Notes: a model not told the origin generated them from the sequence alone. 64,000 nt of DNA from Chitinophagales bacterium (GCA_013298665.1 JAAFIK010000020.1:9635-73634), one strand, 5' to 3'; shown: positions 8,194 to 57,600, counted from the first letter of the stretch. A program made the numbers and translations.

Positions 8194-8196
8194 CGG

Positions 8197-13412: not shown

Positions 13413-13623
13413 TACGCAGTACCTGAGTACTGAGTACCAGGCGGAGAACGCGTTCCGCGTTTCCCTGCGGGCAATGTCATCAGGTTAAGGATTGGCTTGG
13501 CGCAATTGCGTCACCCCTTCACGGTTTATTGCCCGTATAATCGGCTGATGGCTATAATAATACCACCCTGTTGGGTATACGATACACCTTAGTACGTTTT
13601 TATAATCGATGCTATCAGACTTG

Positions 13624-39500: not shown

Positions 39501-42500
39501 CGAACAATTTTCCTGCGTGTTTACCGGGTTGAATGAGGAATGGTTTGTCCGGTGCTGGAACCGTTTGTTGCAGCAGCATACTATTTTACGTACCGCTTTT
39601 TACCACGATGTGTTTGATATACCGGTACAATGTGTCTGTAAAGAAATAAGCCTGCCGCTCAGTGTGCATGATTTCAGCCACTTCCCGGCAGCCATCGGGG
39701 AGGAGAAATGCCGGGTGTATGCGCTTGAAGACCGGGAACGCGGCTTCCGGCTGGACAAAGCCCCACTGATGCGGCTAAGTCTCCTGAAGCTGGGAGATGG
39801 CCATTGCCGTATGGTATGGACCTATCACCATATGATTATGGATGGCTGGTCGCTGCCTGTACTGATGGAATCTTTTCTGAACAGTTATGAAGCACTTGCT
39901 GCGGGTCGGCTGCCCAGGATACTTCCGGAAGACCGCTATGAAGAATACATACGGTTTATGGAACGGCGGAATACACAACGCGAAGAAGCTTTCTGGCGGG
40001 AGTATATGGCTGGTGTTGCCGGGCCGGTATTGCTGCCTTTTTGCGAAACCGCTGAAAGGAATAAAGGCGTGGGTATATACGGCATGTCGTCGTGTGTACT
40101 GGATGCGGCTGTAACAGCAGCGGTACAAGCCTTTGCACAACAGCACCACATCACCATCAATACACTGGTACAGGGCATCTGGGCCTATCTCCTGTATCGC
40201 TATACCGGCCAGCATGATATTGTATATGGGGTAACTGTTTCCGGCAGACCCGATGACATGGCACGTATTGAACACCGGGTAGGGATGTACATCAATACGA
40301 TACCCCTGCATGCGGTCATTGCAGAAGACCAGGCATGGGCTGACTGGTTGCAGGGGGTACAACAGGGACAATTGTCTGCCCGTGTACACCAGTATGCAGC
40401 ACTCAATGATATTCAGCGGTGGATTAACCAGCCTGGTGATCTGTTCGATACCGTACTCGTTTACGAAAACTATCCTGTAAACCAGGTATTGTCTTCCGGT
40501 AAATGGCGGCTGCAGACAACGGATATACGCCAGGAAGGAAAAACCAACTACCTGTTGTATATGATTGCCCAGGTGACCACAACAATCAATATCCAGTTTC
40601 ATTACAACAGCAGTTTGCTGCCTGCTGTGTATGCCGGCCAAATCAACGCAGATTTTACCAGGGTACTCACGCAGGTCGTATCTGTCCCCGGTATGCTGCT
40701 GGCGGATACGGTTTTGTTTTCAACCGCAGCGCCGGAAGCAGAAACCAATCCATCCGCTGCTGACGGATATGCAAACATATACAGCGGCAGTATTGTGGAA
40801 TGCTTCGGTAAACAGGCAGCGCAAAAGCCCGATGCCATTGCCCTGGTTTTTGAGGATAACCAGTGGAGTTACAGGGAACTGGATGAACGCAGCAATCAAC
40901 TGGCACATTACCTGCGGGATACAGGTGTTGCCGAACAAACAATTGTGCCTGTTTGTATGGACCGGAGTGCGACCCTCATCATCACCATACTGGCCATACT
41001 CAAGGCTGGCGGAACATATGTACCTGTTGATCCGGCATATCCTGCACACAGGATCCGCCATATGCTTGAAGATACCGGCAGTACGCTCCTGCTGACCGGG
41101 GTGCATTTGCCCGCCGGTATTGATGATCTGCAGGATTTCCGCATCATCTCCATCAATACCCTGGCCGGTCATTTGTCTGAACAGCCCATGACACCATTGT
41201 GCGGTAAGGCTGCACCGGATTCCCTGGCTTGTATCCTGTATACTTCAGGTTCTACCGGTAATCCCAAGGGGGTTATGGTGAGCCATAGCAATATTGTAAG
41301 CCTGGTGTATGGTATGGATGCTATGCGTCCGGAGCCCGGGGATGTACTACTGGCTACCGGATCGCCGGCTTTTGATGCAACCACTTATGAGTACTGGGGT
41401 ACGCTGCTTAATGGCGCCCGTCTCGTGATCTGTTCGCATGAAACATTGTTAGACGGAACCCTGCTGCATACTGTTGTTCAGCAGCAAAGGGTAAACAAAA
41501 TGTGGTTTACTTCGGGTTGGTTTAACCAGTTGGTAGAAACGGTACCGGAACTCTTTGCAGCTTTAGGTGCTGTTATTGTTGGTGGCGATCGCCTGTCTGC
41601 ACACCATATCCGCCGGTTACAGGTATTGTATCCGCGTTTGCAGATGTTCAACGGGTATGGGCCAACGGAGAATACGACCTTTTCCACTATTTATGCTATC
41701 CCTCCTGCTTATGCGCATGACGCTGTTCCGATCGGTCGCGCCATCGCTTACCGCAGTGCTTTTGTACTTGACCATTGCAGACGGATTTGTCCGCCCGGTG
41801 TACCCGGAGAATTGTATGTTGGCGGTGCAGGCTTGTCCAAAGGATACTGGCGGCAGGAGACCCTTACCGCAGAACGCTTTCTGACGATGGCCAACCTGGG
41901 GCGTTTATACCGTACGGGTGATAAGGCATTGCAACAGGCTGACGGGAATATTATTTTCCTCGGCCGCACAGACGACCAGGTAAAAATCCGCGGTTACCGC
42001 GTTGAACCGGGTGAAATTGAAGCCGTACTGCTGAAGGCTGACGGTGTAGTACAGGCTGCGGTGGTCTTAACGCCTGACGCTGCCGGCGTTAAGCGTTTGG
42101 TGGCGTATGTGGTGCCGCAAACCATGTATGATGTACACGCCTTATGCCATCATCTCCGGGAACATCTGCCCGGCTATATGGTACCACATACCATTGTTGC
42201 CCTGCCCGAACTGCCATTAACGGGAAATGGGAAGGTAGACAGGAAGACCCTGGCTGTAATGGCGGCGGCACCGCAACAGCCTGCCACGCCGTTTGCTATA
42301 CTCACGCCGGAAGAACGCACACTGCTGCTGCACCAATTCAATGATACGGATATGCTGTATCCCCGGGATAAAACCCTTATTGACCTGCTTGACGAACAGG
42401 CGGCAATGACCCCGGATGCGCCGGCCCTGCTTTTTGACATACAGCAACTGAGCTATGGTTCGCTGGTGAGGCATAGTAACCAGCTTGCGCATTACCTGCT

Positions 42501-45500
42501 GCAACAGGGCATTGGTCATGGTATGCTCGTGCCTGTGTGTATGCAGCGCAGTGCTGAAATGGTAATAGCCCTGCTTGCCGTACTCAGAACCGGTGCCGGT
42601 TTTATACCCATAGATCCGATATTTCCAAACGGACGCATCGCATATATGCTGGACAACGCAGGCTGTCGTTGCATCATCGCCGATACGCACGGAACAGCAC
42701 TGCTGCCGGATAATGCGGCCTTGCAGATACTCAATCCGGATCTGGCCACCGCTGATATTGCTGCAATGCCTGTGACGCCCCCCGCTTTCCGTCCCACGCC
42801 CGCAGACACGGCTTATGTTATTTATACCTCCGGCTCAACCGGTCTGCCCAAAGGCGTTGCCATCGGCCACCAGTCATTGGTCAACTTTATATATGCCATG
42901 AAACAGTTGCTGCAAACAGACCAGCACTGCCGCCTGTATTCGGTAACTACTTTCTGTTTCGACATTTTTTATCTCGAACTTTTCCTGCCATTGCTCTCCG
43001 GTGGCCAGGTCATCATTGCACAAAAAGATCAATTGCAGGATGGCGACCAGTTGAGGGCGGCATTGAACCGGTACCAGCCCACACACCTGCAGGCTGTACC
43101 CGTGATGTGGCAGATGCTGGTGAACAGCGGCTGGACGAATGAGGAGCAACTGGTCATCCTTACCGGCGGAGAGGCCATAAGCGAACACCTTAAAGATACA
43201 TTATGCAGATTGGGTACGCAGAAAGTCTGGAACCTTTATGGGCCAACAGAAACGACCATCTGGTCGGTAGCCGGTGAACTGCTTGCAAGTGAGCCCGTTA
43301 CCATCGGTAAGCCCATTGGTAATACACAGGTGTACATCACCAATGCAACAGGCCGGTTGCAACCCATCGGTGTGGCGGGGGAATTGCTCATAGGTGGGGA
43401 CGGACTTGCCAAAGCCTACCTCAACCGTCCCGATCTTACGGATGAGCGGTTTGCACCATTGCATATTGAGGGTATCGGCAACCGAAGGCTTTACCGTACA
43501 GGCGATCTTGCCAAATGGCTGCCTGACGGGCGCCTGATCTGTCTCGGGCGTACAGATGAGCAATTAAAAATAAATGGTTACCGTATTGAGCCGGGGGAAA
43601 TAGAAGCCTTACTGCTCCGGGTTACCGGCGTGGAGCAGGCTGTGGTAGTGATGCAGGAAGATCCGCAGCAGGGCAGACGCCTGGCGGGTTTTCTGGTAAC
43701 CGGTGCGGGTTACGACCAGTCGATGGTGGCAGCATACCTCAGCAGGTATATTCCCGGGTATATGATTCCAAGGATATTGGTCAGCCTGCCGCAACTGCCC
43801 CTCACGCCAAATGGCAAAATTGACCGGAAAGCATTGCAGCAGACACCCGCAGTACCCTCCGCTTCAACGGCATACGAAGCGGCTCAAACGAATACCGAAG
43901 AAGTACTGGTCAGGATATGGCAGGATATACTGGGGGTAACCCCGGTAGGCATACACGATAATTTCTTTGAACTGGGTGGGGATTCGATCATTGCCATACA
44001 GGTGGTGAGCCGCACCCGGCGGGCCGGGTACCCATTGTCACCCAGGGAGCTGTTTGAACATCCCACCATTGCAGGTCTGTCAGACTACTGGTCGTCGCGC
44101 ACCAGTCTTTCGGCATCACCCGCTGTGCAGGCACTCCCGGGCGAACCCTTTGGTTTACTGCCCGTCCAGCGCTGGTACCTGGAATCTGCTCCCGCTGTTC
44201 CTTCCCATTTTAACCAGGCCGTCCTGCTGTCGATCCGCAAGACCCTCACCCGCGGGCAGGTGCAGCAGGCCATTGATGCACTGGTACACCACCATGATGC
44301 CCTGCGGCTTTGTTTTACCTGTCATGACGGGCATTGGCAGCAAACCTATGGTGCTTCGCCCGTGGCATTGGGGCTTACCGATCTGCAAACCGTAAGCGCG
44401 GCTGATTTTACCGCCACCCTGGAGCAGCACAACGACCAGGTTCAGCACCAGCCCGACATCACCCGCGGGGAGTTGCTCCGGCCTGTACTGGTCCTTACCC
44501 CCGGCTTTGAAGCGGACAACCGTTTACTGCTGGTCATTCATCACCTGGTGATTGATGGGGTATCCTGGCGTATCCTGCTCGAAGACCTTTCGCAACTGCT
44601 TGTTCGTGCCGATGCGTTGCTGCCGGCAAAGACGGCACCCCTGCACCACTGGCTGAGTACCCTTTGGGCTTATGGGCAGCAGGCTGCTGTACAGGCAGAA
44701 GAAGCCTGGTGGACAAGCGTATTGTCGCAATACCGGCCGCTGCCCACCGATCATGATTATCCTGCCCCCTTAGTTTTTGAAGACCTTTCAACCTGCCATA
44801 TCCGGCTTGATGCCGGTCATACCCAATCGCTGCTGCATGCGCTTCCATCAATCTTCCATACCCGTGTCAACGACGTACTGCTGGCTGCACTGGGTACCGC
44901 ACTCTGTTCTTTTGGTGATTGTACGCAGGTGGTGGTGGGTCTTGAAGGCCACGGCCGCGAGCAGGTGGCAGGCGATACCGATATCAGCCGTACGGTGGGT
45001 TGGTTTACGCAGATGTACCCGGTATTGCTGGGTGGAAGTAATGGCAATCCCGGTGATACGCTCAAAAATACCAAGGAGCAATTGCGGCGGGTACCGGGTA
45101 AGGGTATGGGGTATATGGTGCTGAAATATCTTACAGGATCAGCAGCTCTGCAGCAGGGAAGCGGCTGGGATGTGGTGTTCAATTACCTGGGTCAGTTGGA
45201 CAATGCAGCCGGGGACAATGATTTGTGGTGTATTGCACCGGAATCTGCGGGTAATACGATCAGCGGACTGAACGGCACGGGCTACCGGCTGATCATCAAC
45301 AGTATGGTCGAGGGTGGTGAGTTGCGGATGAACTGGTTGTACAGCCGCCGCCATTATGACCATGCAACGATAGAAGGGCTTGCGCAGTTGTATGTGCGTT
45401 CGCTTGAAGCACTGGTTGATTACTGCCTGTTGCAGGATAAGCCTGTGTTCACGCCCTCGGATTATGGTATAGGCGATGCCGTGAATTATGAAGAACTTGA

Positions 45501-45546
45501 TGCATTCATGGATGATAATGAAACCGATGATGTGATGACCTTCTGA
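27391..45546 (+). CDS. NRPS-2: dock-C-A-T-C-A(MT)-T-C-A-T-E-C-A-A-T-E (6051 aa)
   Basis: C motifs HHIAFDGWS (x2), HHIAFDAWS and HHMIMDGWS. Five A cores (YTSGSTG[KRQNL]PKG). T cores GGHSL (x2) and GGDSI (x2). E motifs HHLVIDGVSW (x2). No carrier domain between the 4th and 5th A domains. Confidence 0.95.
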   Translation: MTAQHILSVIKTAEAAGIAFFVEDGVLRIRKSKGVVLSEALLREVQAYKQEILTHLSGQDGAPDTRHYKITPASPATGYLPLSFAQERLWFIHHLHGSVQYHLPWVYRLNGRVDRERLANAFLTIIERHTILRTVIAEAEGEPYAVCRPAHEWRMGYRKEALTAAEKYAAADAFVRTPFDLTADFPLRVLLISTGEEEHMLVGVVHHIAFDGWSVGILIQELTALYQNPLAQLPLLPIQYSDFAAWQKQTISDDVITQQAAYWKENLAAVQSCALLTDFVRPAVERHTGAVVSIPISKPLTEALAALSRQEGVTLFMTLLAAYQVLLYRYTGQTDTCVGTPVAGRRQEEVEGLIGFFVNTLPLRNPVNAGDTFRDILLRVKQAALGAYENQDISFERIVEELALTRDLSRSPIFQVMFALQQEVPRSIQLGDVQGLAESPATITAQYDLSLEATQTPDGLIFSLTYCTALYKAATAMGMLDHYVNLLEAVVADAGQEAGQLSMLTADEQHQLLYRFNDTAMPIPEPCSIIAWFHQQVLHRPSATALVFDGEVFCYRQLDEQSNQLAHYLRQSGIKQHDLIPVAMQRSTTMIITLLAVLKTGAAFIPVDPVFPEDRVQYMLEDAQCRWMITHDACQDLAAYHGQATIINTDTCSAAIAGMPQSPLHTTAAADDLVYTIYTSGSTGKPKGVMIEQRSLVNFIMAMQRLLHTGPDCAFYAVTTFCFDIFYLEMFLPLLSGGKLILADRETVQDGYRLRKALAQHRPTHMQAVPAMWRLLLDCDWCNEENIQVLVGGEAVSVPLKEELTRLCQQPVWNLYGPTETTIWSTAGLLPAGDVVTIGRPIGNTQVYITDAQLGLQPIGVPGELYIGGNGLARGYLNRPELTAEKFIIHSFDEQAHSHQRIYRTGDIAKWLPDGRLVYLGRADEQVKIRGYRIEPGEIEALLLQAAGVRQTVVLAQEDSRQERQLVAFIVPDEHYTQPDIIQYLQKHLPAYMVPAIWVTVPHIPQTPNGKADRKALLNNTVMPLATREYAEARNSTEEMLVAIWQDTLGVAQVGIHDNFFELGGHSLQAMRIISAIRKRMGKEIPVKMLFQFPAIALLAPRLSDTHEGDVLPSIATRTRDTVIPLSFAQERLWFIDRLQGTVQYHMPRVFYIRGRLDVAALEAAFTMILRRHEVLRTVIHTAEGRGEQKILAMDNWAVTHVSAGANGLMDKHAVSSHIRRCIEEPFDLGRDSMLRVMLITAGVDDYVLVVCAHHIAFDGWSIDIMQREWIACYRGLSSGGQIDLPVLPVQYADYAIWQRQYLAGHVLETKLAYWKKQLEGLQPLALPADYTRPAAQGTLAGHVHTPIPPSLVDALGKISQAAGATLFMSMATLLNLLLHRYTNQEDIAIGSPVANRNQPELEGLIGFFVNSIVLRNTVSSTLSFLDLLGRVKAVTMEAYAHQDTPFEKIVEAVVKDRDRSRNPVFQVMLLLQDAAAMTLPEDCLGDGLRLTDDGEDHVANKFDLVFTITEGTAAVDLGITYNAELFAQATIERMGRHFVALLASAVQQPESPAGELPMLDKAETDLLLRVYNDTAVSYPAAATVIDWFEAQVQRTPGATAVVFEQVSLSYQALNACVNQLAAHLRSLGVQQEVLVPVCLNRSINMIAGILGILKAGAAYVPVDPEYPEERIRFMLEDTAAKWILTTSDLSLPLSEDQSAINLDLLWPQISHLDTHNPVRLAEPGNLAYVIYTSGSTGRPKGVMIEHAGLFNRLAWAQGQYALTPEDIVLQKTTFCFDVSVWELIWPLLTGASLVLAKPGGHKDSAYLRQVCADRGITLMHFVPAMLEVFLADIRAGDCATLKKILCSGEALTPSQVKLCKEKLPGVALHNLYGPTEASIDVTYWAAPTAAADITTVPIGKPVANTRLYILDQRGRLMHAGGIGELCIAGIQVARGYLNLPELTAEKFMPDPFYPAAGAAGRMYRTGDLARWQQDGNIAFLGRNDDQVKIRGFRIELGEIEYALSTAAGVSGVKVIARAAQPGEDKQLLGYIQVDHLQRPLLYNYQTLVRTGAVNGADLRILPNGLPLLHANPNEVDFLYREIFAEQCYLRHGISLQADSCVFDVGANIGCFTVFLNLLHPGITVYSFEPIPAVFTYLHQNRYLYDVRGKAFPIALLESEQDISFTYYPQMSIVSGIGSNQDAVKEVVSAYATSSGADLAPAEMEALLAAKLTHQQVTSHARTLSQVISDEGITRIDLLKIDVENSEHLVLQGILDADWQKINSLVVEVHDVDGRVAAIMDMLVGRGFTVHAEKEEILSRTHGLYNLYAVRDTNAKGLVMQDSTPHRRIQEWESPHDFTRRLHGHLEQQLPPYMLPAQWILMDRFPITANGKIDKTALPFPAQEPGNHPHVLPRTIMETQLADLWQGLLNRKTIGAYDDFFECGGHSLLAMRLVAAIRRVLLREMPVRTVFDHPVLADLAVLLEQMPASILPPVAIREPGKKNPLSFYQERLWFAGQLHGNQPYLMPWLFSIQGMLNIPALEEAFRRVIARHEILRTVIREADGIGYQLIRDHTLAVMNHVTAGSILEMGYAGTGAYLDALAGETFDLANDDVLRITLIRETADAYLLFLVVHHIAFDAWSVAIMVEELTHIYNAICEGDTPVLKPLPVQYADYACWQRTYFNAAVLQERMAWWQQQLAGVEPLALLTDFPRPDKPGFDGAVVSAITSKEFQQQLTDFCRQEGVTLFMVLLTALKALLYRYTGQQDICVGTSVAARQQPELESLIGFFVNTLALRSEVEGNHAFRTLLQQVRATTLSAYEYQDVPFEKVVEALGVERELNRNPLFEVILVLENTPPAGALNFGAAQLRPVDYGTAAAKFELTVGIAETENGLLLNMVYRRDLFRAETMTTMLDHYITLLMTGVANAGTAINDCLRINPLTGTAGGSVLHTAVACPAGITVPEMFARQVQRVPEQVALVFRQQSLTYRELDRRANQWAHYLQKLGVGAEQPVPVCMERGMDMLTGILAVMKAGGAYVPVDPDFPDGRIRYILEDTMPGVVLTGGTEAERIAQIIAGSGMPGGTRVVDTDTDEHVISIQPTTAPDAGIDETNLAYMIYTSGSTGQPKGVMIEHRHLIDYVHGLRAAIALDACRSFALVSTPAADLGNTVIYGALLSGATLHICPREMVSNGSLLMDYFQEQAIDCLKIVPSHWKALCIGQELLLPQKLLIFGGEALPKQVAESISAAGYSCTVVNHYGPTETTIGKLLHQYVPGTLYGRHIPIGQPFSDTQVYVLSPDAAICPVGIPGEICIAGAGVARGYYQQPGLTAEKFIANPFAGGHEGGRLYKTGDRGRLLPDGNIEYLGRTDDQVKIRGYRVEPGEIEQALLQLPFVNEAVVLVKEDDKNEKRLAAFVVTATPFSRDIIMDALRTRLPEYMIPPILLTVDAVPLTANGKVNRKLLLDMDTAVLPQAGFAAPRNDIETTLTTLWQELLEADRVGIHDNFFELGGDSIIAIQVVSRARRSGYELQVGDIFEYQTIAGLSDYWSSRTSLSASPAVQALPGEPFGLLPIQRWYLESAPAVPSHFNQAVLLSIRKTLTPGQVQQAIDALVHHHDALRLCFTCHDGHWQQTYGASPVALGLTDLQTVSAADFTATLEQHNDQVQHQPDITRGELLRPVLVLTPGFEADNRLLLVIHHLVIDGVSWRILLEDLSQLLVRADALLPAKTAPLHHWLSTLWAYGQQAAVQAEEAWWTSVLSQYRPLPTDHDYPAPLVFEDLSTCHIRLDAGHTQSLLHALPSIFHTRVNDVLLAALGTALCSFGDCTQVVVGLEGHGREQVAGDTDISRTVGWFTQMYPVLLGGSNGNPGDTLKNTKEQLRRVPGKGMGYMVLKYLTGSAALQQGSGWDVVFNYLGQLDNAAGDNDLWCIAPESAGNTISGLNGTGYRLIINSMVEGGELRMNWLYSRRHYDHATIEGLAQLYVRSLEALVDYCLLQDKPVFTPSDYGIGDAVNYEELDAFLAAGEGGSTRGDQIETMYRLSALQQGMLFHSLYEGRAGIYAEQFSCVFTGLNEEWFVRCWNRLLQQHTILRTAFYHDVFDIPVQCVCKEISLPLSVHDFSHFPAAIGEEKCRVYALEDRERGFRLDKAPLMRLSLLKLGDGHCRMVWTYHHMIMDGWSLPVLMESFLNSYEALAAGRLPRILPEDRYEEYIRFMERRNTQREEAFWREYMAGVAGPVLLPFCETAERNKGVGIYGMSSCVLDAAVTAAVQAFAQQHHITINTLVQGIWAYLLYRYTGQHDIVYGVTVSGRPDDMARIEHRVGMYINTIPLHAVIAEDQAWADWLQGVQQGQLSARVHQYAALNDIQRWINQPGDLFDTVLVYENYPVNQVLSSGKWRLQTTDIRQEGKTNYLLYMIAQVTTTINIQFHYNSSLLPAVYAGQINADFTRVLTQVVSVPGMLLADTVLFSTAAPEAETNPSAADGYANIYSGSIVECFGKQAAQKPDAIALVFEDNQWSYRELDERSNQLAHYLRDTGVAEQTIVPVCMDRSATLIITILAILKAGGTYVPVDPAYPAHRIRHMLEDTGSTLLLTGVHLPAGIDDLQDFRIISINTLAGHLSEQPMTPLCGKAAPDSLACILYTSGSTGNPKGVMVSHSNIVSLVYGMDAMRPEPGDVLLATGSPAFDATTYEYWGTLLNGARLVICSHETLLDGTLLHTVVQQQRVNKMWFTSGWFNQLVETVPELFAALGAVIVGGDRLSAHHIRRLQVLYPRLQMFNGYGPTENTTFSTIYAIPPAYAHDAVPIGRAIAYRSAFVLDHCRRICPPGVPGELYVGGAGLSKGYWRQETLTAERFLTMANLGRLYRTGDKALQQADGNIIFLGRTDDQVKIRGYRVEPGEIEAVLLKADGVVQAAVVLTPDAAGVKRLVAYVVPQTMYDVHALCHHLREHLPGYMVPHTIVALPELPLTGNGKVDRKTLAVMAAAPQQPATPFAILTPEERTLLLHQFNDTDMLYPRDKTLIDLLDEQAAMTPDAPALLFDIQQLSYGSLVRHSNQLAHYLLQQGIGHGMLVPVCMQRSAEMVIALLAVLRTGAGFIPIDPIFPNGRIAYMLDNAGCRCIIADTHGTALLPDNAALQILNPDLATADIAAMPVTPPAFRPTPADTAYVIYTSGSTGLPKGVAIGHQSLVNFIYAMKQLLQTDQHCRLYSVTTFCFDIFYLELFLPLLSGGQVIIAQKDQLQDGDQLRAALNRYQPTHLQAVPVMWQMLVNSGWTNEEQLVILTGGEAISEHLKDTLCRLGTQKVWNLYGPTETTIWSVAGELLASEPVTIGKPIGNTQVYITNATGRLQPIGVAGELLIGGDGLAKAYLNRPDLTDERFAPLHIEGIGNRRLYRTGDLAKWLPDGRLICLGRTDEQLKINGYRIEPGEIEALLLRVTGVEQAVVVMQEDPQQGRRLAGFLVTGAGYDQSMVAAYLSRYIPGYMIPRILVSLPQLPLTPNGKIDRKALQQTPAVPSASTAYEAAQTNTEEVLVRIWQDILGVTPVGIHDNFFELGGDSIIAIQVVSRTRRAGYPLSPRELFEHPTIAGLSDYWSSRTSLSASPAVQALPGEPFGLLPVQRWYLESAPAVPSHFNQAVLLSIRKTLTRGQVQQAIDALVHHHDALRLCFTCHDGHWQQTYGASPVALGLTDLQTVSAADFTATLEQHNDQVQHQPDITRGELLRPVLVLTPGFEADNRLLLVIHHLVIDGVSWRILLEDLSQLLVRADALLPAKTAPLHHWLSTLWAYGQQAAVQAEEAWWTSVLSQYRPLPTDHDYPAPLVFEDLSTCHIRLDAGHTQSLLHALPSIFHTRVNDVLLAALGTALCSFGDCTQVVVGLEGHGREQVAGDTDISRTVGWFTQMYPVLLGGSNGNPGDTLKNTKEQLRRVPGKGMGYMVLKYLTGSAALQQGSGWDVVFNYLGQLDNAAGDNDLWCIAPESAGNTISGLNGTGYRLIINSMVEGGELRMNWLYSRRHYDHATIEGLAQLYVRSLEALVDYCLLQDKPVFTPSDYGIGDAVNYEELDAFMDDNETDDVMTF
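33500..34340 (+). other. FkbM-family methyltransferase domain inserted in the second A domain of NRPS-2, between cores A8 and A9 (approximate bounds)
   Basis: VFDVGANIGCFTVFL (SAM-binding GxNxG) and RIDLLKIDVENSEHLVLQG are hallmark FkbM/Methyltransf_21 blocks. Flanked by KIRGFRIELGEIE (A8) upstream and LPPYMLP...ANGKIDK (A9/A10) downstream. Confidence 0.8.
37936..39374 (+). repeat. E-domain repeat copy 1 (NRPS-2 module 3 epimerase)
   Basis: 1439 bp matching 44065..45503 at a constant offset of 6129 bp (in frame). About 8 mismatches are visible, all within the first ~310 bp. I found no mismatch from about 38250 to 39374. Confidence 0.9.
40790..42250 (+). other. NRPS-2 fourth A domain, Val-like code, not followed by a carrier domain (approximate bounds)
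   Basis: Cores LYTSGSTGNPKG, NGYGPTENTT, GELYVGGAGLSKGY, YRTGD, GRTDDQVKIRGYRVEPGEIE and LPLTGNGKVDRK (A10 at 42222-42245). Hand-extracted code DAYWIGGTFK. Confidence 0.8.
42301..43840 (+). other. NRPS-2 fifth A domain, Gly code, beginning with a C-A-linker-like motif 18 codons after the previous A10 (approximate bounds)
   Basis: LTPEERTLLLHQFNDT (42301-42348) parallels LTADEQHQLLYRFNDT at the C1-A1 junction. Cores IYTSGSTGLPKG, NLYGPTETTIWS, YRTGD and TPNGKIDRK. Hand-extracted code DILQLGLIWK. The A8 core reads KING instead of KIRG. Confidence 0.8.
44065..45503 (+). repeat. E-domain repeat copy 2 (NRPS-2 terminal epimerase)
   Basis: See copy 1. Several minus-strand shadow ORFs are amino-acid identical between the copies (38395..38625 = 44524..44754, 38648..38995 = 44777..45124 and others). 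Identity ends at 39375/45504, where copy 1 continues into a C domain and copy 2 into the tail MDDNETDDVMTF-stop. Confidence 0.9.
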
Positions 45547-45626
45547 CCTGAAAATGGTCTTCCCGGCACAAATGCCGGGGATAAAATTATTCGCTGCACT
45601 TATCACTAAGAAAAAATACAACAACA

Positions 45627-48600
45627 ATGGATAACCTGGAATCTACGACCATGACCGGTCAGCAGTCTGCCGGAGATAATGGCAGTATAGCAACCCTGTC
45701 TCCCGGCGGGCAAAGCCTCGTACAAATATTCACCCGTCAGGTGCAGCAGCATCCTGCCGCAGTGGCACTGCTGATGGGTAAGGAGAAAATGACATATCAG
45801 GAACTTGATCAACGCAGCAACCAGGTGGCTCATGGTCTGCGGTTGCAGGGTGTTCGGCCGGGTGACGCCATCGGGTTGCTGTCTGAGCGTGGTACAGCCA
45901 TGGTGGTCAGTTTGTGGGGCATACTGAAAGCCGGGGGTATTTATGTACCCCTTAGCACTAGTTATCCTGCCGAACGTTTGCAGTACATGGTGCGGGATGC
46001 CGGGGTTACCTGTATTGTACACACCGCCGAAAGCCTGCTTGATCAGTTGGGATTGCCGGATCATGGCCTTACGCTTGATGAATACGATTGCCGGTTTTAT
46101 CCGGTTACCCCTGTTGAAGATGCCACCACAGCAGCGGCAGGAGCATATATCATGTACACCTCCGGCTCTACGGGCAAACCCAAGGGTATACTGGTTACAC
46201 ATGCCAATATTGTTCAACTGGTATTTGACCCCGGTCCGATCAGGATACTGCCGGGCGATCGTGTACTCCAGTGGTCTGACTATGCATTTGACGGGTCTGT
46301 TTATGACATGTTTGGCAGTTTACTGAATGGCGCCTGTCTCTGTCTTGTCCGGGGCAATACCTCAGATGTTTATGCCCTTGGCCGGTTGATTGCTGAACAG
46401 GAAGTCAGTCTCGCTTTTTTCACTACCGCTTTACTGAATAATTTTGCAGATGCCTGCCCGGAAGCACTCCGGGATATGCGGAAGGTGTTGTTTGGCGGGG
46501 AAGAGGCTTCGGTTGCGCATGTACGCAACATACTGGAGGTGCTCGGTCCGGGAAAACTGGTACACGTGTACGGACCTACAGAAACAACGGTTTTTGCCAC
46601 CGCTTATGCTGTCAATACCATTGAGGCAGAGCAATACATCCCTATTGGTAAGCCGCTGAAGGATGCCCGTATTCTTTTGCTGGGTGCAGATGGACATCCG
46701 GTGTCTGCGGGGTCGCCCGGGGAGATATGTATCGGTGGTGGTGGCGTATCGGCCGGGTACCTGCGTAATGAAACCCTGACTGCGGAGAAATTTGTGCACC
46801 GGAACGGAGCGCGCTATTACCATTCCGGCGATCTTGCCCGTGAAGATGAAGCGGGGAACCTCATTTTTATGGGCAGGATAGACGGGCAGATCAAACTGCG
46901 CGGATACCGTATTGAACCCGGAGAGATTGAAGCCCTGCTCCTGCAATGCCCGGGTGTACAGCAGGCAGTTGTTTTACTGCATACTACAGGAGAAACGCAT
47001 AAAAAACTGGCCGGGTTCTTAGTCACCGGCAATGGGTATGATAAGGCTGCCATGCTCGATGTTGTACAAGGGCAATTGCCTGCCTGGATGATCCCTGCTG
47101 TATGGATGGAACTGCCCCATATACCGTTGACGCCTAACGGAAAAACTGATCGTGCAGCGCTCATACACCTCTTGTCTGCCCCCGATAAGGAACAGGAAAC
47201 CGCAGACACCCGATCCGTTGCCGAAGAAGTATTTACGCAAATATGGCAGGATACGCTGGGTATCCGGCGGGTAGGTATAACAGATAATTTTTTCGATTTG
47301 GGGGGGGACTCGATTATCTCAATACAGGTCGTAAGCCGGGCAAGAAAAGCGGGCTACAATTTATCCCCCAAAGATATATTTGAGTATCCAACCATTCGCG
47401 CGCTTGCAGCATACTGGCAGTCGGAAGACAGACCCGGGCCCGGAGAAAGGGAGCAAGGGCTGCTGACAGGCCTATGCGGATTGCTGCCCGTGCAGCACTG
47501 GTATTTTGAACAGGGCCTGGCACGACATTCCCATTTTAACCAGGCAGTACTGCTCGGCATCGGTAAACCGGTTACGCAGGATCAACTGCAGCAAATATAT
47601 ACCCGGCTGACCGACCACCACGACGCACTCCGTTTTGTCTTTACCCCGCAGAACGGAGGGTGGGAGCAGGTATACGGCAATCCGGAGCTCCGGTTGCAGG
47701 TGATTGATATGGAAGCTGTTGCTGCCGGGGATTTTGCAGCCACCCTTCTTGCACACAGCAACAGTATACAGGAAAGCCTGTGTATAGAAACCGGTGAACT
47801 CTTCAGGATGGTATTGTTCAACACACCCGCTTTTGAGCAACAGAACCGGTTGTTACTGGTTATCCATCACCTGGTGGTAGACGGGGTTTCCTGGCGCATC
47901 CTTATCGAAGATATCGAACGCCTGCTGGATAACCCGGCTGCTGCACTGCCGCCCAAAACGGCCTCCTGTCGCGACTGGCAGGAGGCACTCCTTTATTATG
48001 CCCGGCAAAAAACCGTGCAGGAAGAAGCACACTACTGGGCAGAAACAATCGCCACCGCTGAACGCCTGCCCACTGATTATACTTACGAAACACCCCTGGT
48101 GCAGGATGATATGCAGCAGTATTGCATCCGCCTCAGTGCCGCTTCCACAAAGGCCCTGCTGCAGGATATCCCCGCTCTCTTTCATACCGGTATCAACGAT
48201 ATCCTGCTGACGGCACTGGGGATATCGGTTTGTGCATTCGCTGGAACCAGCCAGGTAGTGATCGGGCTCGAAGGCCATGGCCGTGAATCCATCGCGGGGG
48301 ATATTGACCTGAGCCGTACCGTGGGTTGGTTCACCAGTTTGTACCCCCTGCGGCTGGAGGTTCAGGACAAAAATCCAGTTGAGGTATTGAAGCATACCAA
48401 GGAACAGTTGCGCAGGGTACCCGGGAGGGGTATGGGCTATATGGTGCTGAAATACCTGCAGCGTTTACCCGGATTGCAGGGGCCGGACTGCTGGGATCTG
48501 CTGTTCAACTATCTCGGGCAACTGGATCGTGTCGCCACAGGTCATGGCCCGCTTTCAGTAGTACAGGAATCTGCAGGTCAGAATACTGCTGCTGCCAACA

Positions 48601-51600
48601 AACCCATTTGCAGGCTGATCATCAACGGGATGGTTACCGGGGAAGCATTACTTGTGCAATGGCAGTACAGTACCCGGCACTATGCAGCAGATACCATCGC
48701 TTCGGTTGCAGCCACCTTTCAGGAAGTACTGGAAACCCTGGTGCGCGATTGCAGACACCAGCAACCTGTATTTACACCTGCCGATTATGGTCTTGGCGAT
48801 AGTGTTGACTATAGGGAACTTGATGATTTCCTGGGTGTGGATACCCCTGCTTCCACAAGTATTACCCGGGAAGACACCGATGCCGCCAGCATCCGTATGT
48901 TTATCGATAACCTCGCTGCACAGGATTTTTTTCTGGTTGTGGAAAAGGAAAACCTCATACTGCGCACAAAAAAAGGGAAACCGCCGGGCGGGCAGCGGGT
49001 AAAGCCTGCATCTTCAATCGTGAACTATATCAAAACCCACAAAGCTGCACTTATGCAGCATCTTTCCGGTACTGAAACTGCTGTACAGCAAAAGCCCCGG
49101 AAAAAAGTGACGGGTATTTGTAAACTCTCCCCCTTACAGGCCGGGATGCTCTTTCACGGGCTTTATGAGCAGCATACCCTCGCCTATATCGAACAGTTCT
49201 GCTGCAGGTGCAGCAACCTTGATCCCGTACTGTTTTCGCGTGGGTGGCACATACTCGTCGTGCAGCACAGTATCCTCAGGACGGCTTTTTATGCAAATAC
49301 ATTTAATATACCCGTTCAATGTGTACAGGAGAATGTTGTACTGCCCATCACCATTATTGACTATCGTCAACTGGATAAGGCTAAACAGGAACAGGCTATT
49401 GCTGCATACAAGAGTGCCGACCAGCAGCAGCCTTTCGATTTTGAGCAGGCACCATTGATGCGTATTGGGTTGCTCAGGCTCAGCGAACAGGAATGGCATA
49501 TGGTATGGACCTATCACCATATACTGGTAGATGGCTGGTCTATGCAATTGCTGATGCAGTCTTTTCTTACGATCTATGAAGCCCTCGTATCCGGCGAAGC
49601 ATTACCGCAGGTTAAGGAAGACCGCTATGAAGATTATATCCGGTATATTGAGCGGCAGGATAAGGCCAAAGAAGAAGCCTTCTGGCGGGGGTATATGGCT
49701 GGTATGGATACGGCCACATTATTACCCTTTATACATTCCCTGGCCGATCGTAATAAAACAGTGGAGACGTTCAGTGCCGAGTATCTTGTATTGGATGAGG
49801 CACAGTCGGTACAACTGCAGTCCTGGGCACAACAGCAACGGGTTACCATGAATACGGTATTGCAGGGGGTATGGGCAATACTATTGCACCATTATACAGG
49901 CAACAATCATATTGCATACGGGATAACCGTATCCGGCCGGCCCGCTGATTTAAAAAATGTAGAGGAGAAAATTGGCATCTACAGCAACCTGAATCCGCTG
50001 CATTCCTGCTGGCGGGCTGAGCAGGATATTGCCGGATGGCTGCAGGATATGCAGTTGCAACAGCTCCTGTCAAGAGAGTTCCAGTACAGTTCGGTGAATG
50101 ACATACAACGCTGGACGGGTATTATGGGTGACTGGTTCGACAGCATACTCACTTTTGAAAATTATCCGCTGAGCCGGATGCTGGCTTCGCGTCAATGGTC
50201 GCTCAGTATTGAAGCTACTGAAAAGTATGAGCGGACAACCAATTATCCCATGAGTGTACGTGTGGTACCCGGCACCAATACCCAGGTACAGTTTATCTAT
50301 AAAAGCAGTCTTCTGCCGCAGGCATCAGCAGCGCAGATCGCCCGTCACTTCAGGGAGGTGCTGCTCGGGATGATTACCGGTAAGGCAACCACCGTAGGCA
50401 GTCTGCAGTTGATGGGCGACATCGAACGGCAGAGCTTACTGGATACTTTTTCTGCCGGGGACACTGTACCCGTACCCACCGGTACATCCATCACCGGTCT
50501 GTTTGCCGAACAGGTAAACGCTACGCCGGATCATCCGGCACTGGTGTTTGAAAATATAACCATTACCTATAAGGTATTAGACGATCAGGCGGTATGCCTG
50601 GCGCATCACCTCATCAACCATGGTATTGATTCGGGAGATATGGTCCCCATCTGTATGGAACGCAGTGTACACTTCATCATTGCCATATTCGCCACCCTGA
50701 AAGCAGGTGCCGCTTATGTTCCCATCGATCCTGCATACCCGGCAGAACGCGTTGCTTATATGCTTAAAGATACCGCAGCAAAACTGGTGCTTACGGATGA
50801 AGGTTCACGCAGCCTCCTGCCTGCTGACCTGCCCGTACTGCTTCCTGCTGCTGTTTTGACCGGTACTGGCGGTTTGCCTGCACCGATACATAAACACCCG
50901 GAACCACACGATCTGGCATACGTTATCTATACTTCCGGAAGTACCGGGTTACCCAAGGGTGTGATGATCGAACATGGTAACCTGCTGCATTCTGTATGGG
51001 CGCGTAAAGCATATTATGGCCCGGCAGGGGCAGCCTTTCTCGTGCCTTCATTTGCTTTCGACTCTTCCGTAGCCGTTATTTTCGGCACGTTGCTCAGCGG
51101 TGGTCAACTGTTGTTTTGCCGGGAAGAATGGTTAAAAGATACCCGTTATCTTGAAACGATATTACCGCAGACGGATATGTTGCTTTGCGTACCTTCCTAC
51201 TACCAGTTCCTGCTCCAGGAACGGTTGCTGGACAATACCCGGCTGCAAACGGTGATCCTTGCGGGGGAGCCACTGGAGCCCTCACTTGTCCGCCAGCACT
51301 ATACCGTATCGGCAGCACAGCTATACAATGAGTACGGGCCCACCGAAGCCAGTGTATGGGCTACCGTAAGCCATGTTAAAAAAGAAGACCGGCAGGTAAC
51401 GATCGGCAGACCTGTACCAAACCTCAGCCTGTATATCCTCGATGCTGCCGGTTGCCCGGTGCCGGAAGGTATTCCGGGTGAAATATATATTGGCGGGCCA
51501 CAGGTGGCAAGAGGGTATCTTAACCAGACAATACTTACCGGGGAGAAATTTGTAACCATTGCTGCAGACGGGCATACACCCCGCCGCCTCTACCGCACCA

Positions 51601-54600
51601 ATGACCGGGCCCGCTGGCTGCCCAATGGTGAAATTATGTTTCTTGGCCGGTCAGACGACCAGGTAAAGATCAGGGGCTACAGGGTTGAACCCGGTGAAAT
51701 AGAAGCTGTACTCCATCGTGCACCCGGCATACAGCAGGCTGTTGTACTGGCCGCAGAAAACGCCCGGGGACAGCAGCAATTGATGGCATTTGTCGTTTGT
51801 CATGAACCGCCTGACAGGGATGGCCTGCAGGAGTACCTGAGGGCTTATCTGCCGGGATACATGGTGCCTGGTATTGTTATTCGTGTCAACAGCATTCCCC
51901 TCACGGCAAATGGTAAAACGGATAAGAAAAAATTAACCGCAGTTTACCAGTCGCAGGTGCAGCAACAGCAATACACCGCACCGGTTAACCATACGCAGGA
52001 ACGCCTTGCAGAGATGTGGCAGTCTATCCTTGAACAGCCCAAAGTGGGCATACACGACGATTTCTTTGACCTGGGCGGACACTCGCTGTCTGCCATGCGT
52101 CTGGTGGCAGCTATACGGCGGCAATGGAATATCGACCTGCCACTCAGGACCGTATTCAGCCATGCAACAATTGCACAGTTAGCCCCGCTGCTCCGGCAGC
52201 AAACAGTTGCTGCCGATGCGGCATTGGCAAAGCGCCCGGACAATGAACCTGCCCGTCTTTCTTTTGCGCAGGAACGCCTCTGGTTTATTCACCGGTTGCA
52301 GGGCAGTACACAATACCAGTTGCCCTGGTTGTTCCGGCTCACCGGGCACCTCAACATCCAGGCCATGCAAATGGCATTTACCACCATTTTGCAACGCCAT
52401 GAGGTACTGCGAACCATTATTAAAGCAGCGGATGGCACCGGCACCCCCTGCCTGCTGGAGGCAAACAGGTGGGGTATGGATGTACAGACCGGGAATGGTG
52501 CACCTGCAACCGATATCCTCAGCGATATTTACCAATGGCTGCAACTGCCGGTCAACCTCAGCCAGGATTATATGCTCAGGGCCCGGCTGGTCATTACCGG
52601 CAACAGTACATATCTGCTTGGCCTGGTGGTACACCATATTGCTTTTGACGGATGGTCGGTAGCTGTTTTGGTGGATGAATGGATGGCCTTGTACAACAGC
52701 TTTTCCACCCAACAGGCACATGCACTGCCCGAACCCTTACTCCAGTATGCAGATTACGCCCACTGGCAAAGAAAACAACAGAACCAGTCCCGTGAAAAAT
52801 TGCTTGAATATTGGGCTGCCCATCTTGCAGGTGTAACACCCGTTGATATACCCACCGACTATCTGCGGCCTGTGAGACAAAGCATAGCGGGGGCACAGGT
52901 AAGCCTTCAGCTCAGCCCGGTGCTGAGCAACCGCCTGCAACAGTTTGCCCGCGAAGAAAATGTAACCTTGTTTATGGTACTGCTTGCTGCAGCCAATGTA
53001 TTGCTCAGCAGGTACAGCAGGCAGGACGACATCTGTATCGGAACGCCGGTTGCCGGCCGTCAGCATACCGCACTCGAAAAAATGATCGGGTTATTTGTCA
53101 ATACCCTGCCCATGCGTAACCGGTTGAAAGCAGGACAGTCTTTCAGTGATTTGCTGCAGCAGGTAAAAGCGTCAACGCTTTCGGCCTACGAACACCAGGA
53201 GCTCCCCTTTGAGCAGATGGTTGATGTACTCGGTCTTGCCCGTGATCCTGCCCGTCACCCGGTATTCCAGGTGGTACTGTCGCTGCACAATATGCCCGCC
53301 GCGGCGAACCTGCAACTCCACGAGCTGGACTGCACCCTGCTGCCTGTAGCACGTACCACTACTGCTTTTGAACTTGACTTTGACATTACCCTCGGCGACC
53401 AGGGGTTGCGCGTGGTACTGACTTACTGTTCCGAACTCTTTGCCGAGCCACGGATGCAGCATTTTCTGGCTCACTATGTTCACCTGCTGGAGCGTTTTGC
53501 CGCAGATCCGGCCATTGCTGTTGATCTGGCGCCCATGTGGACGTCCGGTGAAGAAATGGCCGGCCGGTTGCAGTTGGCGGTTAAAGCGTTTCCCGAAAAC
53601 GGGGCAGGTAATGTTGTACAATGTTTTGCCGCACAGGTAGCACAGGCACCCGATGCCGTGGCACTGGTTTTTGGTGATGCCTGCTGGAGCTACCGTAGGC
53701 TGGATGAAGAGAGTAACCAGCTTGCCCATTACCTCTGCAGCATCGGTATAAAGGAAGGGACCCCGGTTCCCCTTTGCATCGACCGCAGCGCAACACTCAT
53801 CATCACTATACTGGCTATCCTGAAAGCAGGCGGCGCCTATGTACCCATCGATCCGGCCTATCCGGCCAGCCGCATATCGTATATGCTTGCAGACATCGGC
53901 ATGCCTTTGCTGCTGGTGGATAAAGCATATCCGGTACTTGCGGATATTGACGATACGGTGATGCAGGTACTGGTGGATATGCAGCGCGACCAGTTGCGTA
54001 CCCAGCCATCTGCTCCCGTCGATATTGCTGTTCAGCCCGGTACGCTGGCCTATATCATGTATACGTCCGGCTCCACCGGAAAACCAAAAGGTGTAATGAT
54101 CGAACACCAGAATATCGTGAGTCTTGTACGGTCGGTGAACGATATGCCGCTGCAGCCGGGGGATACCTTACTGGCTACAGGTTCACCCTCTTTTGATGCC
54201 ACTACTTTTGAATACTGGGGTACCCTGCTTAATGGAGCCCGTCTTGTGATGTGCAGCCAGGAAACCCTGCTGGATACAGCATTGCTGCAGGCAGCCATCC
54301 GCCGGGAAAACGTGAACAAACTCTGGATGACCATTGGCTGGTTCAACCAGTTGGTAGAAACCGTTCCGGAAATATTCAGCACCCTCAACCATATTATTAC
54401 CGGCGGAGACCGGCTGTCGGCAGCCCATATTGCGCAGTTGCAGAAAGCCTGTCCGCAACTGACAATCGTCAGTGCGTATGGGCCTACTGAAAATACCACT
54501 TATTCAACGACTTATGTCATTCCGCCGGTTGACGGCCGTGCAGCCATTCCGCTTGGATGGCCTGTCGCATACAGAGGTGCCTTTGTGCTGGATAGACACG

Positions 54601-57600
54601 GCCGTCTTTGCCCGCCCGGTGTACCCGGAGAGTTGTATGTTGGCGGTGCAGGTCTCGCCAGGGGATACTGGAAACAGCCGGAGCTCACCGGTGAAAGGTT
54701 TACCGAAATTGCGCCCTTCGGGCGTTTATACCGGACCGGCGATATGGCATATGCCCGGCCGGATGGCAACCTCATTTTTCTTGGCAGGGACGATGAACAG
54801 GTAAAGATCCGGGGTTACCGCGTTGAACCCGGAGAAGTTGAGCGCCTCCTGGAAGAAGCACCGGGTATCCGGCAGGGCGTTGTGGTGGTGGCACGCGACA
54901 CGGCAGGTATAAAATGCCTCGTGGCTTATGTCATTCCGGGTGATGATTATGAAAGCGGGGCTGTAACCGGTTACCTGAAAGCACGGTTGCCGGAGTATAT
55001 GGTACCACAGGCGGTTGTTCCGGCGGAGCAATTGCCATTAACGGGCAATGGTAAGGTTGACCGTAAGGCTTTGGCCGCCCAACCCTTACCCGATGGTACG
55101 CATAGTGAAGCCACAGGATATATTGCACCCGCTACGTCAACCGAAGCCATACTGGCAGCGTTATGGGAAACCCTGCTCAGTAAGAAAAGGATCGGTACCC
55201 GGGATGATTTTTTTGCGCTCGGGGGGCATTCCATCATGGCCATGCGCCTGGCATCCGATATCCATAAAACCCTGCTCAAAGAACTGCCCATACGGGATAT
55301 ATTTGAACACCCCACGATTGCGGAACTGGCAGCAATACTGGAAAATATTTTACCCGATGCGGTTCCCTTACTGCCCTGCCGGGAAGAGGGGATTAACATA
55401 CCGCTTTCATTTTCCCAGGAACGCCTCTGGTTTATCGACCAGTTGCAGGGCTCCGTTCAATACCATATGTCATGGCTGTTCCGGCTGAAAGGTACCCTTA
55501 ACGTTGCAGCGCTGGAAGCTGCCTTTACAACCATTGTACAAAGGCATAGCGTGCTGCGTACTGTTGTACAGGAAATGGATGGCATCGGTTACCAGCAGGT
55601 TAATCCGGCGGCTGACTGGAAGATGGTGTATATAACGGTACCGGATATCATCGCCGGCAACACCACCGTAGAGGAGTACATCCGGGAGCGGGTACAAACA
55701 CCTTTCAACCTCGCCGCCGATCCCATGCTCAAAGTGACCATGATACAGGTAGCTGCAGATGAACATATCCTCTCCACCCTGTTTCACCATATTGCTTTTG
55801 ACGGTTGGTCCATCAGTATTATGGTTGATGAACTGGTGCAGCTTTACCACAGTTTTGTTGCAGGACAGCCGGATAAACTGACGCCCCTGCCTGTGCAATA
55901 TGCCGACTATGCCATCTGGCAGCGCGAGCACCTTTCCGGCAGCCGGCTCAACGCCAAGCTGGCCTACTGGAAAAATAAGCTGTCGGGTCTCCAGCCGCTC
56001 AACCTGCCCACAGATTATGTGCGCCCGCCTGTGCAGAGTACAAAGGGGCAAAGCATAAAATTTGTTATTGAACCCGCATTGACGGCACGTCTTGAACAAT
56101 GGGCGCAGGTACACGGCGCAACGCCCTTTATGGCCCTGCTCACGGCTTTTAAAATACTGTTGTACCGTTATACCGGTCAGCCGGATATTGCTGTAGGCAC
56201 ACCCGCTGCCAATCGTTTGCAACCTGCGGCTGCACCACTGATCGGCTTTTTTGTCAATACCCTTGTGCTCCGGGATTGTATTGACGGGGAAAGCGATGCA
56301 TGTACACTTCTGCAGCAGGTGAAAACAACCGCGCTCGAAGCCTATGCCGAACAGGATACGCCGTTCGAGAAAGTGGTGGAAGCCGTAGCTGTGGAAAGGA
56401 ATATGGACAATTCCCCGCTTTTTCAGGTGTTTTTCGCCCTGCAGAACATTCCTGAAGTAAAACCACTCAGCTTTGCCGGTGTTGAACTGTCGGTTATACC
56501 CGCAGCAACCGAAACGGCCAAGTTTGACCTGTATTTTGATTTTACACAGACACCCGAAGGCCTGCATACGCTTGTACAGTTTTGTACAGACCTGTTCAGT
56601 CCCGATACCATCAGCAGGATGTTTATGCACTTCAGGCAATTACTGGTATCCATGCTTGACCAGCCTGCGCAGAAGATCAGCCGCCTCAATATGCTGACCC
56701 CCGCAGAAGAGGCACAGTTGAATGATTTTAACAATACCGCACAGCCCTTTCCTGAAGGGGCAAGCATAACCGGTTGGTTTGAAGAACAGGTCAGGCAAAC
56801 ACCCGCCAGACCCGCGGTGGTGATGAACGGGGAGTCGCTCAGTTATACCGCATTAAACCGGCAGGCTAATATACTGGCAAACCGGCTTTTGTCAACCGGC
56901 GTGCAACCGGGTAGCCGGGTAATCGTTTGCACAGAGCGTTCCTTTGGAATGATTGCAGCCGTACTGGCTGTTCTTAAGGCGGGTGCCACCGTGGTGCCGG
57001 TAGATCCGGGATATCCTGCAGAACGGATTGCCTTTATGCTGCAGGATGCGGCTGCAACGGCCATACTCAGCAGCACCCGTTGCATGGGTATTGTACCCGC
57101 AACGGTCGGCCTGTCCCTGATCCTTGTTGATGAAAGCGGTAAGGATCATACGGATGCAGCACAGGAAAATCCGGCTATGGTTACCGATCCTGCAATACCC
57201 GTTTACCTCATTTATACTTCCGGGTCAACCGGCAAACCCAAGGGCGTATTACTGCCCCGGCAGGCCCTGCAGAACCTTTTGTACTGGCAGCACCGGTGCG
57301 GAGTGAACCGTCCGGGTGAAAGGATCCTCCAGTTTGCCAGCCTCAACTTTGATGTCAGCTTTCAGGAGATCGGCAGCGCCCTGTGTTTTGGACATACCCT
57401 TTGTCTCGTTGATGAAGACCTCCGGAAAGATATGCAGGAACTGACCAGCCTGATCAACCGGGAAGCGCTTACGCAATTGTTTATTCCTTATGTGGTACTG
57501 AAAAACCTGGCTGAATATGCCGGCCAGTCCGGTAGCTATCCCACTACTATCCGGGCCATATTTACTGCCGGCGAGCAGCTCCGTCTTACAGAAGATATCC

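Follow-up and report, generated by a model that had tools for sequence, protein, structure and literature searches.

Which condensation domain receives the peptide chain from the second of four nonribosomal peptide synthetases (NRPSs), and how did the third of these proteins come to carry a docking domain in its interior? Both questions are raised by a lipopeptide gene cluster in a 64,000-nucleotide (nt) stretch of DNA from a Chitinophagales bacterium (GCA_013298665.1, JAAFIK010000020.1:9635-73634), hereinafter the window, from the first letter of which all coordinates are counted; the domains, linkers and intergenic gap of NRPS-2, NRPS-3 and NRPS-4 located below are all on the + strand. NRPS-2 (27391-45546, 6051 amino acids (aa)) has the domain order dock-C-A-T-C-A-T-C-A-T-E3-C4-A4-A5-T5-E5, with an FkbM methyltransferase inserted in the second of its A domains and the tail MDDNETDDVMTF at the end (C, condensation; A, adenylation; T, thiolation or carrier; E, epimerization; dock, docking domain). 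NRPS-3 (45627-58577, 4316 aa) reads A-T-E-linker-dock-linker-C-A-T-C-A-T-C-A-T and ends with the tail NYDTIQL. The broken colinearity between the two proteins was noticed in a preliminary description of the sequence, and the domain map agrees; the feature is real and well beyond chance. With moderate confidence, and judging from sequence, we read NRPS-3 as an old fusion in which an initiation-type A-T-E tridomain was joined, through a 16-aa linker, to the N-terminus of a former dock-C subunit, with the dock predicted to be working.

Residues 1086-1152 of NRPS-3 (48882-49082), with the basic hairpin LILRTKKGK, are a divergent yet genuine beta-hairpin dock, almost exactly where a TubC_N-like domain had been proposed (48885-49071). 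The domain begins at residue 1086 of 4316, behind an E domain and far from the N-terminus, and carries an insertion of 7-8 residues after strand beta2. The Pfam TubC_N hidden Markov model (HMM), the check that had been recommended, does respond to this region, with a partial match (12.6 bits, E = 0.16) that covers profile positions 1-29 only and stays under the 26-bit cut-off. For comparison, the N-terminal docks of NRPS-2 (27394-27564) and NRPS-4 (58629-58796) score 32.6 and 20.5 bits, respectively, and the internal dock matches that of NRPS-2 in BLASTP (E = 6e-4), both ending with HLSG. An HMM built from 146 docks, all from outside the window and from other organisms only, was run on 16.8 thousand residues, made up of the PKD/CHU_C protein encoded upstream and all four NRPSs. 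It matches three places only, namely the N-termini of NRPS-2 and NRPS-4 and residues 1088-1150 of NRPS-3, the last being aligned over the full model (model positions 2-56). The excised internal dock scores 25.0 bits with this model, a value reached by none of 2000 shuffles (maximum 7.4). When 1.84 billion proteins in a representative collection were searched with a profile made of docks only, 2609 docks were retrieved and the NRPS-3 match was again placed at 1086-1152.

The structural evidence points in the same direction. AlphaFold2, supplied with an alignment of 44 sequences, models the internal dock with an alpha-beta-beta-alpha-alpha fold (predicted local distance difference test (pLDDT) 74; helices 6-18, 49-57 and 59-70, strands 21-26 and 29-34). 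The top five structures found with this model by Foldseek in the PDB are 6EWU, 6EWS, 5T7Z, 6EWT and 8AQQ (template modeling (TM) score up to 0.77), that is, in rank order, the docks of Kj12C, Kj12A, EpoB, Kj12B and AerJ; the dock of the enacyloxin C domain and that of TubC rank lower in the list. A profile that includes the internal dock matches AerJ, TubC, EpoB, Bamb_5915 and Kj12 in the PDB, and the single-sequence AlphaFold model retains the order of the elements, at a pLDDT of 39.5, which is too poor for a structure search. The modeled fold, with a basic hairpin facing an acidic tail, is shared with the docks of TubC, EpoB, Kj12A-C, TxlAB, Bamb_5915 and AerJ, whereas the internal position, the divergent sequence and the insertion after beta2 set the NRPS-3 dock apart from the known beta-hairpin docks.

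On the donor side, NRPS-2 ends, in accord with the preliminary description, in T5-E5 followed by ELDAF, the acidic tail and the stop codon. E5 spans 44146-45525 (aa 5586-6045), and the tail together with the stop codon spans 45508-45546; it is presumed to be a short linear docking motif and is of the same type as the tails of NRPS-1 (EAYEFIDL) and NRPS-3. The gap between NRPS-2 and NRPS-3 (45547-45626, 80 nt) contains an A-rich stretch ahead of the ATG. A G+C-rich hairpin of 9 bp (45560-45581) directly follows the NRPS-2 stop codon, and the minimum free energy of the gap is -21.9 kcal/mol (z = -2.8). Given that the hairpin has no T-run, it is not a classical terminator, and terminator prediction made no call on the + strand. 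Behind the preceding stop, no start codon comes earlier than the ATG of NRPS-3 at 45627, and the frame differs; the presence of a hidden C domain or dock upstream of NRPS-3 is therefore excluded.

NRPS-3 opens, as had been stated, with an A (35-506), a T (534-594) and an E domain (615-1075), without a C domain and without an N-terminal dock. The C-A linker motif (LxxxExxxLLxxxNDT), found ahead of most other A domains and of A5 of NRPS-2 among them, is missing from its first 34 residues, and the A-T-E is the sole unit of the cluster without a C domain by domain count. The A1 domain (45729-47144) has intact core motifs A3, A5, A7, A8 and A10 and the specificity code DGYFLGVVFK, which we take to be Ile/Val-like. 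The T1 carrier (47226-47408) has the GGDSI..IQ motif of the type that partners E domains, and the E1 domain (47469-48833), which ends with DYRELDDFL, contains the motifs PVQHWYF, HHLVVDGVSW, EGHGRE, RTVGWFT and FNYLGQ. Preceded by no C domain within its own protein, and with the core motifs of A, T and E intact, the start of NRPS-3 has the makeup of an A-T-E initiation module.

The internal dock is followed by a flexible linker (49083-49118; 12 aa in these coordinates, or ~16-18 aa from HLSG to LSPLQ) and by the C2 domain (49119-50438). An N-terminal motif of the form LSPxQxGMLFH marks C domains of the DCL type, which joins a D-configured donor to an L-configured acceptor. C2, previously assigned to this type, contains the motif as LSPLQAGMLFH and is 45% identical to C4 of NRPS-2, the only other C domain that follows an E domain, compared with <=27% for the nine other non-E C domains, so the assignment stands. 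Three tails (the C-termini of NRPS-1, NRPS-2 and NRPS-3) and three docks (the N-termini of NRPS-2 and NRPS-4 and the internal dock of NRPS-3) are encoded in the cluster; all three tails are acidic and end with the pattern hydrophobic-x-hydrophobic, and all three docks have basic hairpins. Among these docks, only the internal one precedes a DCL-type C domain. Given that the terminal E domain of NRPS-2 requires a DCL C domain, and that no dock other than the buried one leads to such a domain, NRPS-2 most plausibly hands off at this dock. Transfer from E to C through a beta-hairpin dock is documented in TxlAB (PMC6195595), where an E-terminated subunit delivers to a C domain as we propose for NRPS-2 and NRPS-3.

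The internal position of the dock points to a fusion because docks are normally N-terminal: among the best 150 dock matches, the best-scoring dock match starts <=30 residues from the N-terminus in 142, and NRPS-3 itself is the only one of these 150 in which a dock stands behind an E domain. The case for a fusion is strengthened by the usual length of the linker between the dock and C2, given that the linkers of beta-hairpin docks are roughly 20 aa long, similar to that in NRPS-3 (PMC9113145). From E to C, the spacer of NRPS-3 measures ~90 aa in total, whereas NRPS-2 has ~11-20 aa at its cis E3-C4 junction. The simplest origin, and our best reading, is that the reading frame of the A-T-E was fused onto that of a dock-C subunit. 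Such a fusion is likely; its parts are known, and the arrangement is unusual without representing a new kind of enzyme.

A tail-like segment in front of the dock had been interpreted as the scar of a lost stop codon. The resemblance is no evidence of such a loss, because DYRELDDFL, like NYEELDAF in NRPS-2, is the conserved end of an E domain, and this string is found once more at the end of E3, where E3 and C4 are joined in cis in the ordinary way (NYEELDAFLAAGEGG). The actual linker between E1 and the dock is GVDTPASTSITREDTD (48834-48881, 16 aa, with an in-frame GTG at 48837), and its likeness to the NRPS-2 tail is undetectable in both protein and DNA. The string TDAASIRMF was also considered as a relic of the tail TDDVMTF and rejected, given that it sits in helix 1 of the dock.

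Buried docks recur in unrelated proteins encoded on metagenome contigs. P0237, P0153, P0164 and P0145 have the arrangement dock-C-dock-C(-A-T), and the internal docks of the first two match Pfam TubC_N with 74.7 and 52.6 bits, which indicates that buried docks can be stable and occur repeatedly. In these four proteins the buried dock follows a C domain that is itself preceded by an N-terminal dock, whereas that of NRPS-3 follows an A-T-E. Tandem N-terminal docks are present in P0129, P0131, P0175 and P0233.

Under the fusion scenario, the former N-terminus of the subunit would consist of the beta-hairpin dock, the flexible linker and the DCL-type C domain, followed by three full modules. The buried dock is predicted still to bind the acidic tail of NRPS-2, and the lipopeptidyl chain on T5 would, after the action of E5, be passed in trans to the donor site of C2. 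The main line would then run from NRPS-1 to NRPS-2, to NRPS-3 (from C2 onwards) and to NRPS-4, bypassing the A-T-E and yielding a 12-residue lipopeptide. The A-T-E itself, which has no C domain to receive a chain and is for this reason limited to the role of a cis donor or to a role in trans, would be a second, cis-tethered donor of a D-configured Ile/Val-like residue to the same C2, providing an alternative start for a 7-residue peptide, or else would serve in trans.

Several observations weigh against this scenario. A donor tethered in cis should out-compete one that arrives in trans, which makes the hand-off from NRPS-2 less obvious. No orthologue of NRPS-3, fused or unfused, was found in the databases searched, so that the fusion is read from the domain grammar, and no remnant of a tail, a stop codon or an intergenic region is recognisable in the NRPS-3 linker. 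With respect to the dock, the Pfam score is below the gathering threshold of PF18563, the AlphaFold model was built on aligned canonical docks and is accordingly biased to that fold, and a phmmer search of the PDB with the internal dock sequence alone returned chance matches only and no dock. Finally, an assembly problem is conceivable to some extent, given the repeats of 99-100% identity in the cluster.

The searches for relatives were made at several levels. NRPS-2, NRPS-3, NRPS-4 and the beta-hydroxylase of the cluster are singletons at 90% identity in the protein collection, and the nearest relatives of the NRPSs, at ~40% identity, come from Chitinophagaceae and other Bacteroidota. A scan of genome contigs with the E-dock-C segment returned only two Streptomyces loci (29% identity). 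A word-indexed protein search with the 170-aa junction gave no match; the same search with A-T-E-dock-C gave matches of <=45% identity, among which only P0029 bears a TubC_N domain, at the N-terminus, and with a profile of four docks it gave two fragments only. In a metagenome scan, two loci 44-47% identical were found, with plain T-E-C junctions and N-terminal docks. The chitinopeptin cluster family was considered as the source and rejected, given that its E domains are classically embedded and that the Chitinophaga proteins are <=~41% identical.

The domain grammar is also irregular in NRPS-2 and NRPS-4, and the alternative that survives best makes use of these irregularities. The A4-A5 didomain of NRPS-2 (40804-43818, in C4-A4-A5-T5-E5) contains one A domain more than there are carriers. 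Both A4 and A5 retain the core motifs A3, A5, A7, A8 and A10, and A5 has its own C-A linker motif, LTPEERTLLLHQFNDT. Code extraction, validated on GrsA, for which it returned DAWTIAAICK, gives DAYWIGGTFK for A4, which by the Stachelhaus codes we take to be Val-like, and DILQLGLIWK for A5, identical to the code of NRPS-2 A1 and presumably the Gly code, though an E domain follows. Tandem A-domain modules are known in PyrG (pyridomycin) and AurA (auriculamide), and the first A domain of PyrG is without catalytic residues (PMC10510592). The C-A-A-T arrangement of these proteins is common to module 4/5 of NRPS-2; in contrast to PyrG, however, neither A4 nor A5 is a dead copy, and their specificity codes differ.

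NRPS-4 starts at 58614 and runs past the end of the window; it was completed from P0128, the first 1795 residues of which are the NRPS-4 of the window, to 3014 aa with the order dock-C-A-T-C-A-T-C-T-TE (TE, thioesterase). Modules 1 and 2 (C-A-T) are 100% identical in DNA from 58850 to 64000 (the window end), with a period of 3135 nt, and the full protein P0128 has two identical modules followed by a terminal C-T-TE without an A domain. In this last module, the C domain (2173-2610) is connected by a 45-aa Ala/Pro-rich linker to the T domain (2656-2716) and the TE, and Pfam detects only PP-binding and Thioesterase in the segment after the last C domain. The terminal T has the motif GGYSI..IQ though no E domain follows, and its scores are highest against NRPS-2 T3 (150), NRPS-3 T1 (148) and NRPS-2 T5 (143), with <=130 for the other carriers. 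Altogether, the cluster encodes 13 A, 13 T and 12 C domains (the starter C counted). Judging from these counts, the extra A domain of NRPS-2 probably makes up for the A domain missing from the last module of NRPS-4, and it may be a trans-loader of that module rather than debris.

A trans-loading design could extend to the junction at issue, if A4 or A5 of NRPS-2, or the A-T-E of NRPS-3 acting as a pre-loading and epimerizing unit, supplied the C-T-TE of NRPS-4; the A-T-E would then not be a starter for C2, and the dock would serve NRPS-2 only. We consider this design unlikely. It accommodates the presence, among 13 A and 13 T domains, of one A without an adjacent T and one T without an A, the higher scores of the terminal T against the carriers that partner E domains, and the position of NRPS-3 A1 as the closest paralogue (56%) of the pair of A domains ahead of the A-less module; moreover, A-less modules loaded in trans are known in WS9326A and thalassospiramide (PMC10510592), with which the terminal C-T-TE of NRPS-4 shares this feature. 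However, neither a dedicated A-T donor nor a shuttling enzyme of the thioesterase or acyltransferase kind was found in the window, and a stand-alone C domain was not found there either. The WS9326A and thalassospiramide systems differ from the cluster in this respect, and also in that the candidate trans-loader here forms part of another subunit. Furthermore, there is no link between the terminal T and any one A domain, the adjacent A2 domain of NRPS-4 could load both carriers, and the likeness of the terminal T to the E-partner carriers is modest. A combination of the two ideas, whereby the dock makes the DCL C domain a programmed two-input junction and the A domain of NRPS-2 that lacks a carrier charges the last module of NRPS-4 in trans, appears unlikely. 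If the two-input part were true, a lipo-dodecapeptide and a free heptapeptide with the last six residues in common would be made by one cluster.

Another alternative, the one put forward in the preliminary description, is a recent insertion or tandem duplication of an A-T-E cassette across the boundary between NRPS-2 and NRPS-3, a single event that would account for the extra A domain, the buried dock and the A-T-E without a C domain, and would leave a fresh, probably non-functional scar. This event is quite improbable, because identity to A5, T5 and E5 is only 37% for the A, 67% for the T and 52% for the E domain of NRPS-3, no long DNA repeat was found across the boundary, and composition is uniform: the codon usage and GC3 of the A-T-E match those of the remainder of the cluster, on which ground a recent acquisition from outside was rejected as well. 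It is true that the cluster recombines, the modules of NRPS-4 being one case and E3 and E5 another. These two E domains are 99% identical, as proteins and over a DNA tract of ~1.43 kb (44089-45514 against 37960-39385), which starts at the end of the T domain and stops exactly at ELDAF. On the evidence of its limits, the tract is a domain-precise gene conversion or duplication, and it is the only recent event near the boundary. It is also true that canonical grammar is restored in silico by removal of either A5-T5-E5 with the stop codon, the gap and the NRPS-3 A domain, or A4 together with the NRPS-3 A-T-E. That part of the earlier argument holds, but it ignores the A-less terminal module of NRPS-4, which offers the extra A domain a possible job.

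The similarities within the cluster favor an old tridomain instead. The closest paralogue of NRPS-3 A1 is the A1 domain of NRPS-4 (56%), T1 is nearest to NRPS-2 T5, followed by T3 (62%), and E1 is 51-52% identical to E3 and E5. Given that these in-cluster paralogues (A 56%, T 67%, E 52%) are closer than any database match (<=45%), the tridomain appears to have arisen within this lineage long ago. Despite the divergence, the motifs of the tridomain, like those of both tandem A domains, are intact, which argues for use; the A-T-E is accordingly more likely to be in use than to be a fresh scar. The affinity of T1 to T5, which speaks for a cassette, could also reflect an ancient event in which the terminal A-T-E of NRPS-2 was duplicated and the stop codon was then lost, a possible route that results in the same fusion; an ancient duplication with replacement of the A domain is likewise possible, but merges into the fusion scenario.

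Mis-assembly over near-identical repeats, or inactive evolutionary debris, would remove the need for any functional reading. The exact or near-exact repeats of 1.4 kb and >2 kb in the cluster, the derivation of the sequence from a single contig without relatives and the occurrence of three separate anomalies of grammar in one cluster give some substance to this possibility, which we nevertheless regard as very unlikely. Since the E repeat occurs just twice on a linear contig, no other linear order is available, and the NRPS-2 tail, the gap and the start of NRPS-3 all lie outside this repeat. An exact tandem repeat of 3.1 kb is usually collapsed, not created, by short-read assemblers. No interruption is seen in the reading frames (6051, 4316 and 3014 aa), all catalytic motifs that were checked are intact, and the numbers of tails and docks are balanced (3:3). 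The remaining alternative, in which an internal start at GTG 48837 gives a dock-C form of NRPS-3 beside the full-length protein so that only a fraction of the enzyme pool would carry the A-T-E, is extremely improbable: the GTG is in frame, 15 codons ahead of the dock helix, and a fusion could leave the old initiation region partly in place, but the A-rich leader that precedes the starts of NRPS-3 and NRPS-4 is absent at this site and in-frame GTG codons are common by chance.

The closest functional parallels to the start of NRPS-3 are GrsA and TycA, free-standing A-T-E initiation modules that feed the DCL C domain of the next subunit. Like these, NRPS-3 has a C-less A-T-E, in this case with a GGDSI carrier, an intact E domain and a DCL C domain next to it. 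In contrast to GrsA and TycA, the A-T-E of NRPS-3 is covalently fused to the acceptor subunit and comes third in gene order, behind a subunit for lipo-initiation, and the interface is a beta-hairpin dock, not a COM helix.

Docking domains are handles for splitting and recombining peptide synthetases in engineering, and the peptide chemistry of Bacteroidota is little explored. In this context, NRPS-3 represents a natural test of whether a beta-hairpin dock recruits its partner away from a free N-terminus, and of the choice of a C domain between a cis and a trans donor. The tandem A domains and the A-less last module make the cluster a compact case of non-colinear logic. If the fusion is merely tolerated, it would be a curiosity of cluster evolution.

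The cluster is an orphan lipopeptide cluster of Bacteroidota. It begins with NRPS-1 (15478-23805; FAAL-ACP-C-A-T-C-A-T), which contains its own lipo-initiation unit, FAAL-ACP-C, and continues with an ABC transporter (23938-25581) and a CmlA-like beta-hydroxylase (25637-27268), followed by NRPS-2, NRPS-3 and NRPS-4. The A domain of NRPS-2 module 2, which has a Ser code, is interrupted by the FkbM-family methyltransferase at 33700-34254, an insert that suggests a methylated serine residue in the product.

Upstream of the cluster, a type IX secretion neighborhood occupies positions 19-13412 of the window and, like the nearest relatives of the NRPSs, marks the host as a member of Bacteroidota. This neighborhood includes the giant PKD/CHU_C protein (19-5553), PorP/SprF (5598-6683), an M56 peptidase of the BlaR1-like type and a pair of paralogous M57 metallopeptidases (8788-9591 and 9783-10619) that share a 98-nt stretch of 79% identity. 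Its last gene encodes an S8 peptidase that bears a Por_Secre_tail (10764-13412). In the intergenic region that separates this S8 peptidase from a LuxR-type response regulator, there are two tandem copies of an 83-nt unit (13604-13769) that are 87% identical.

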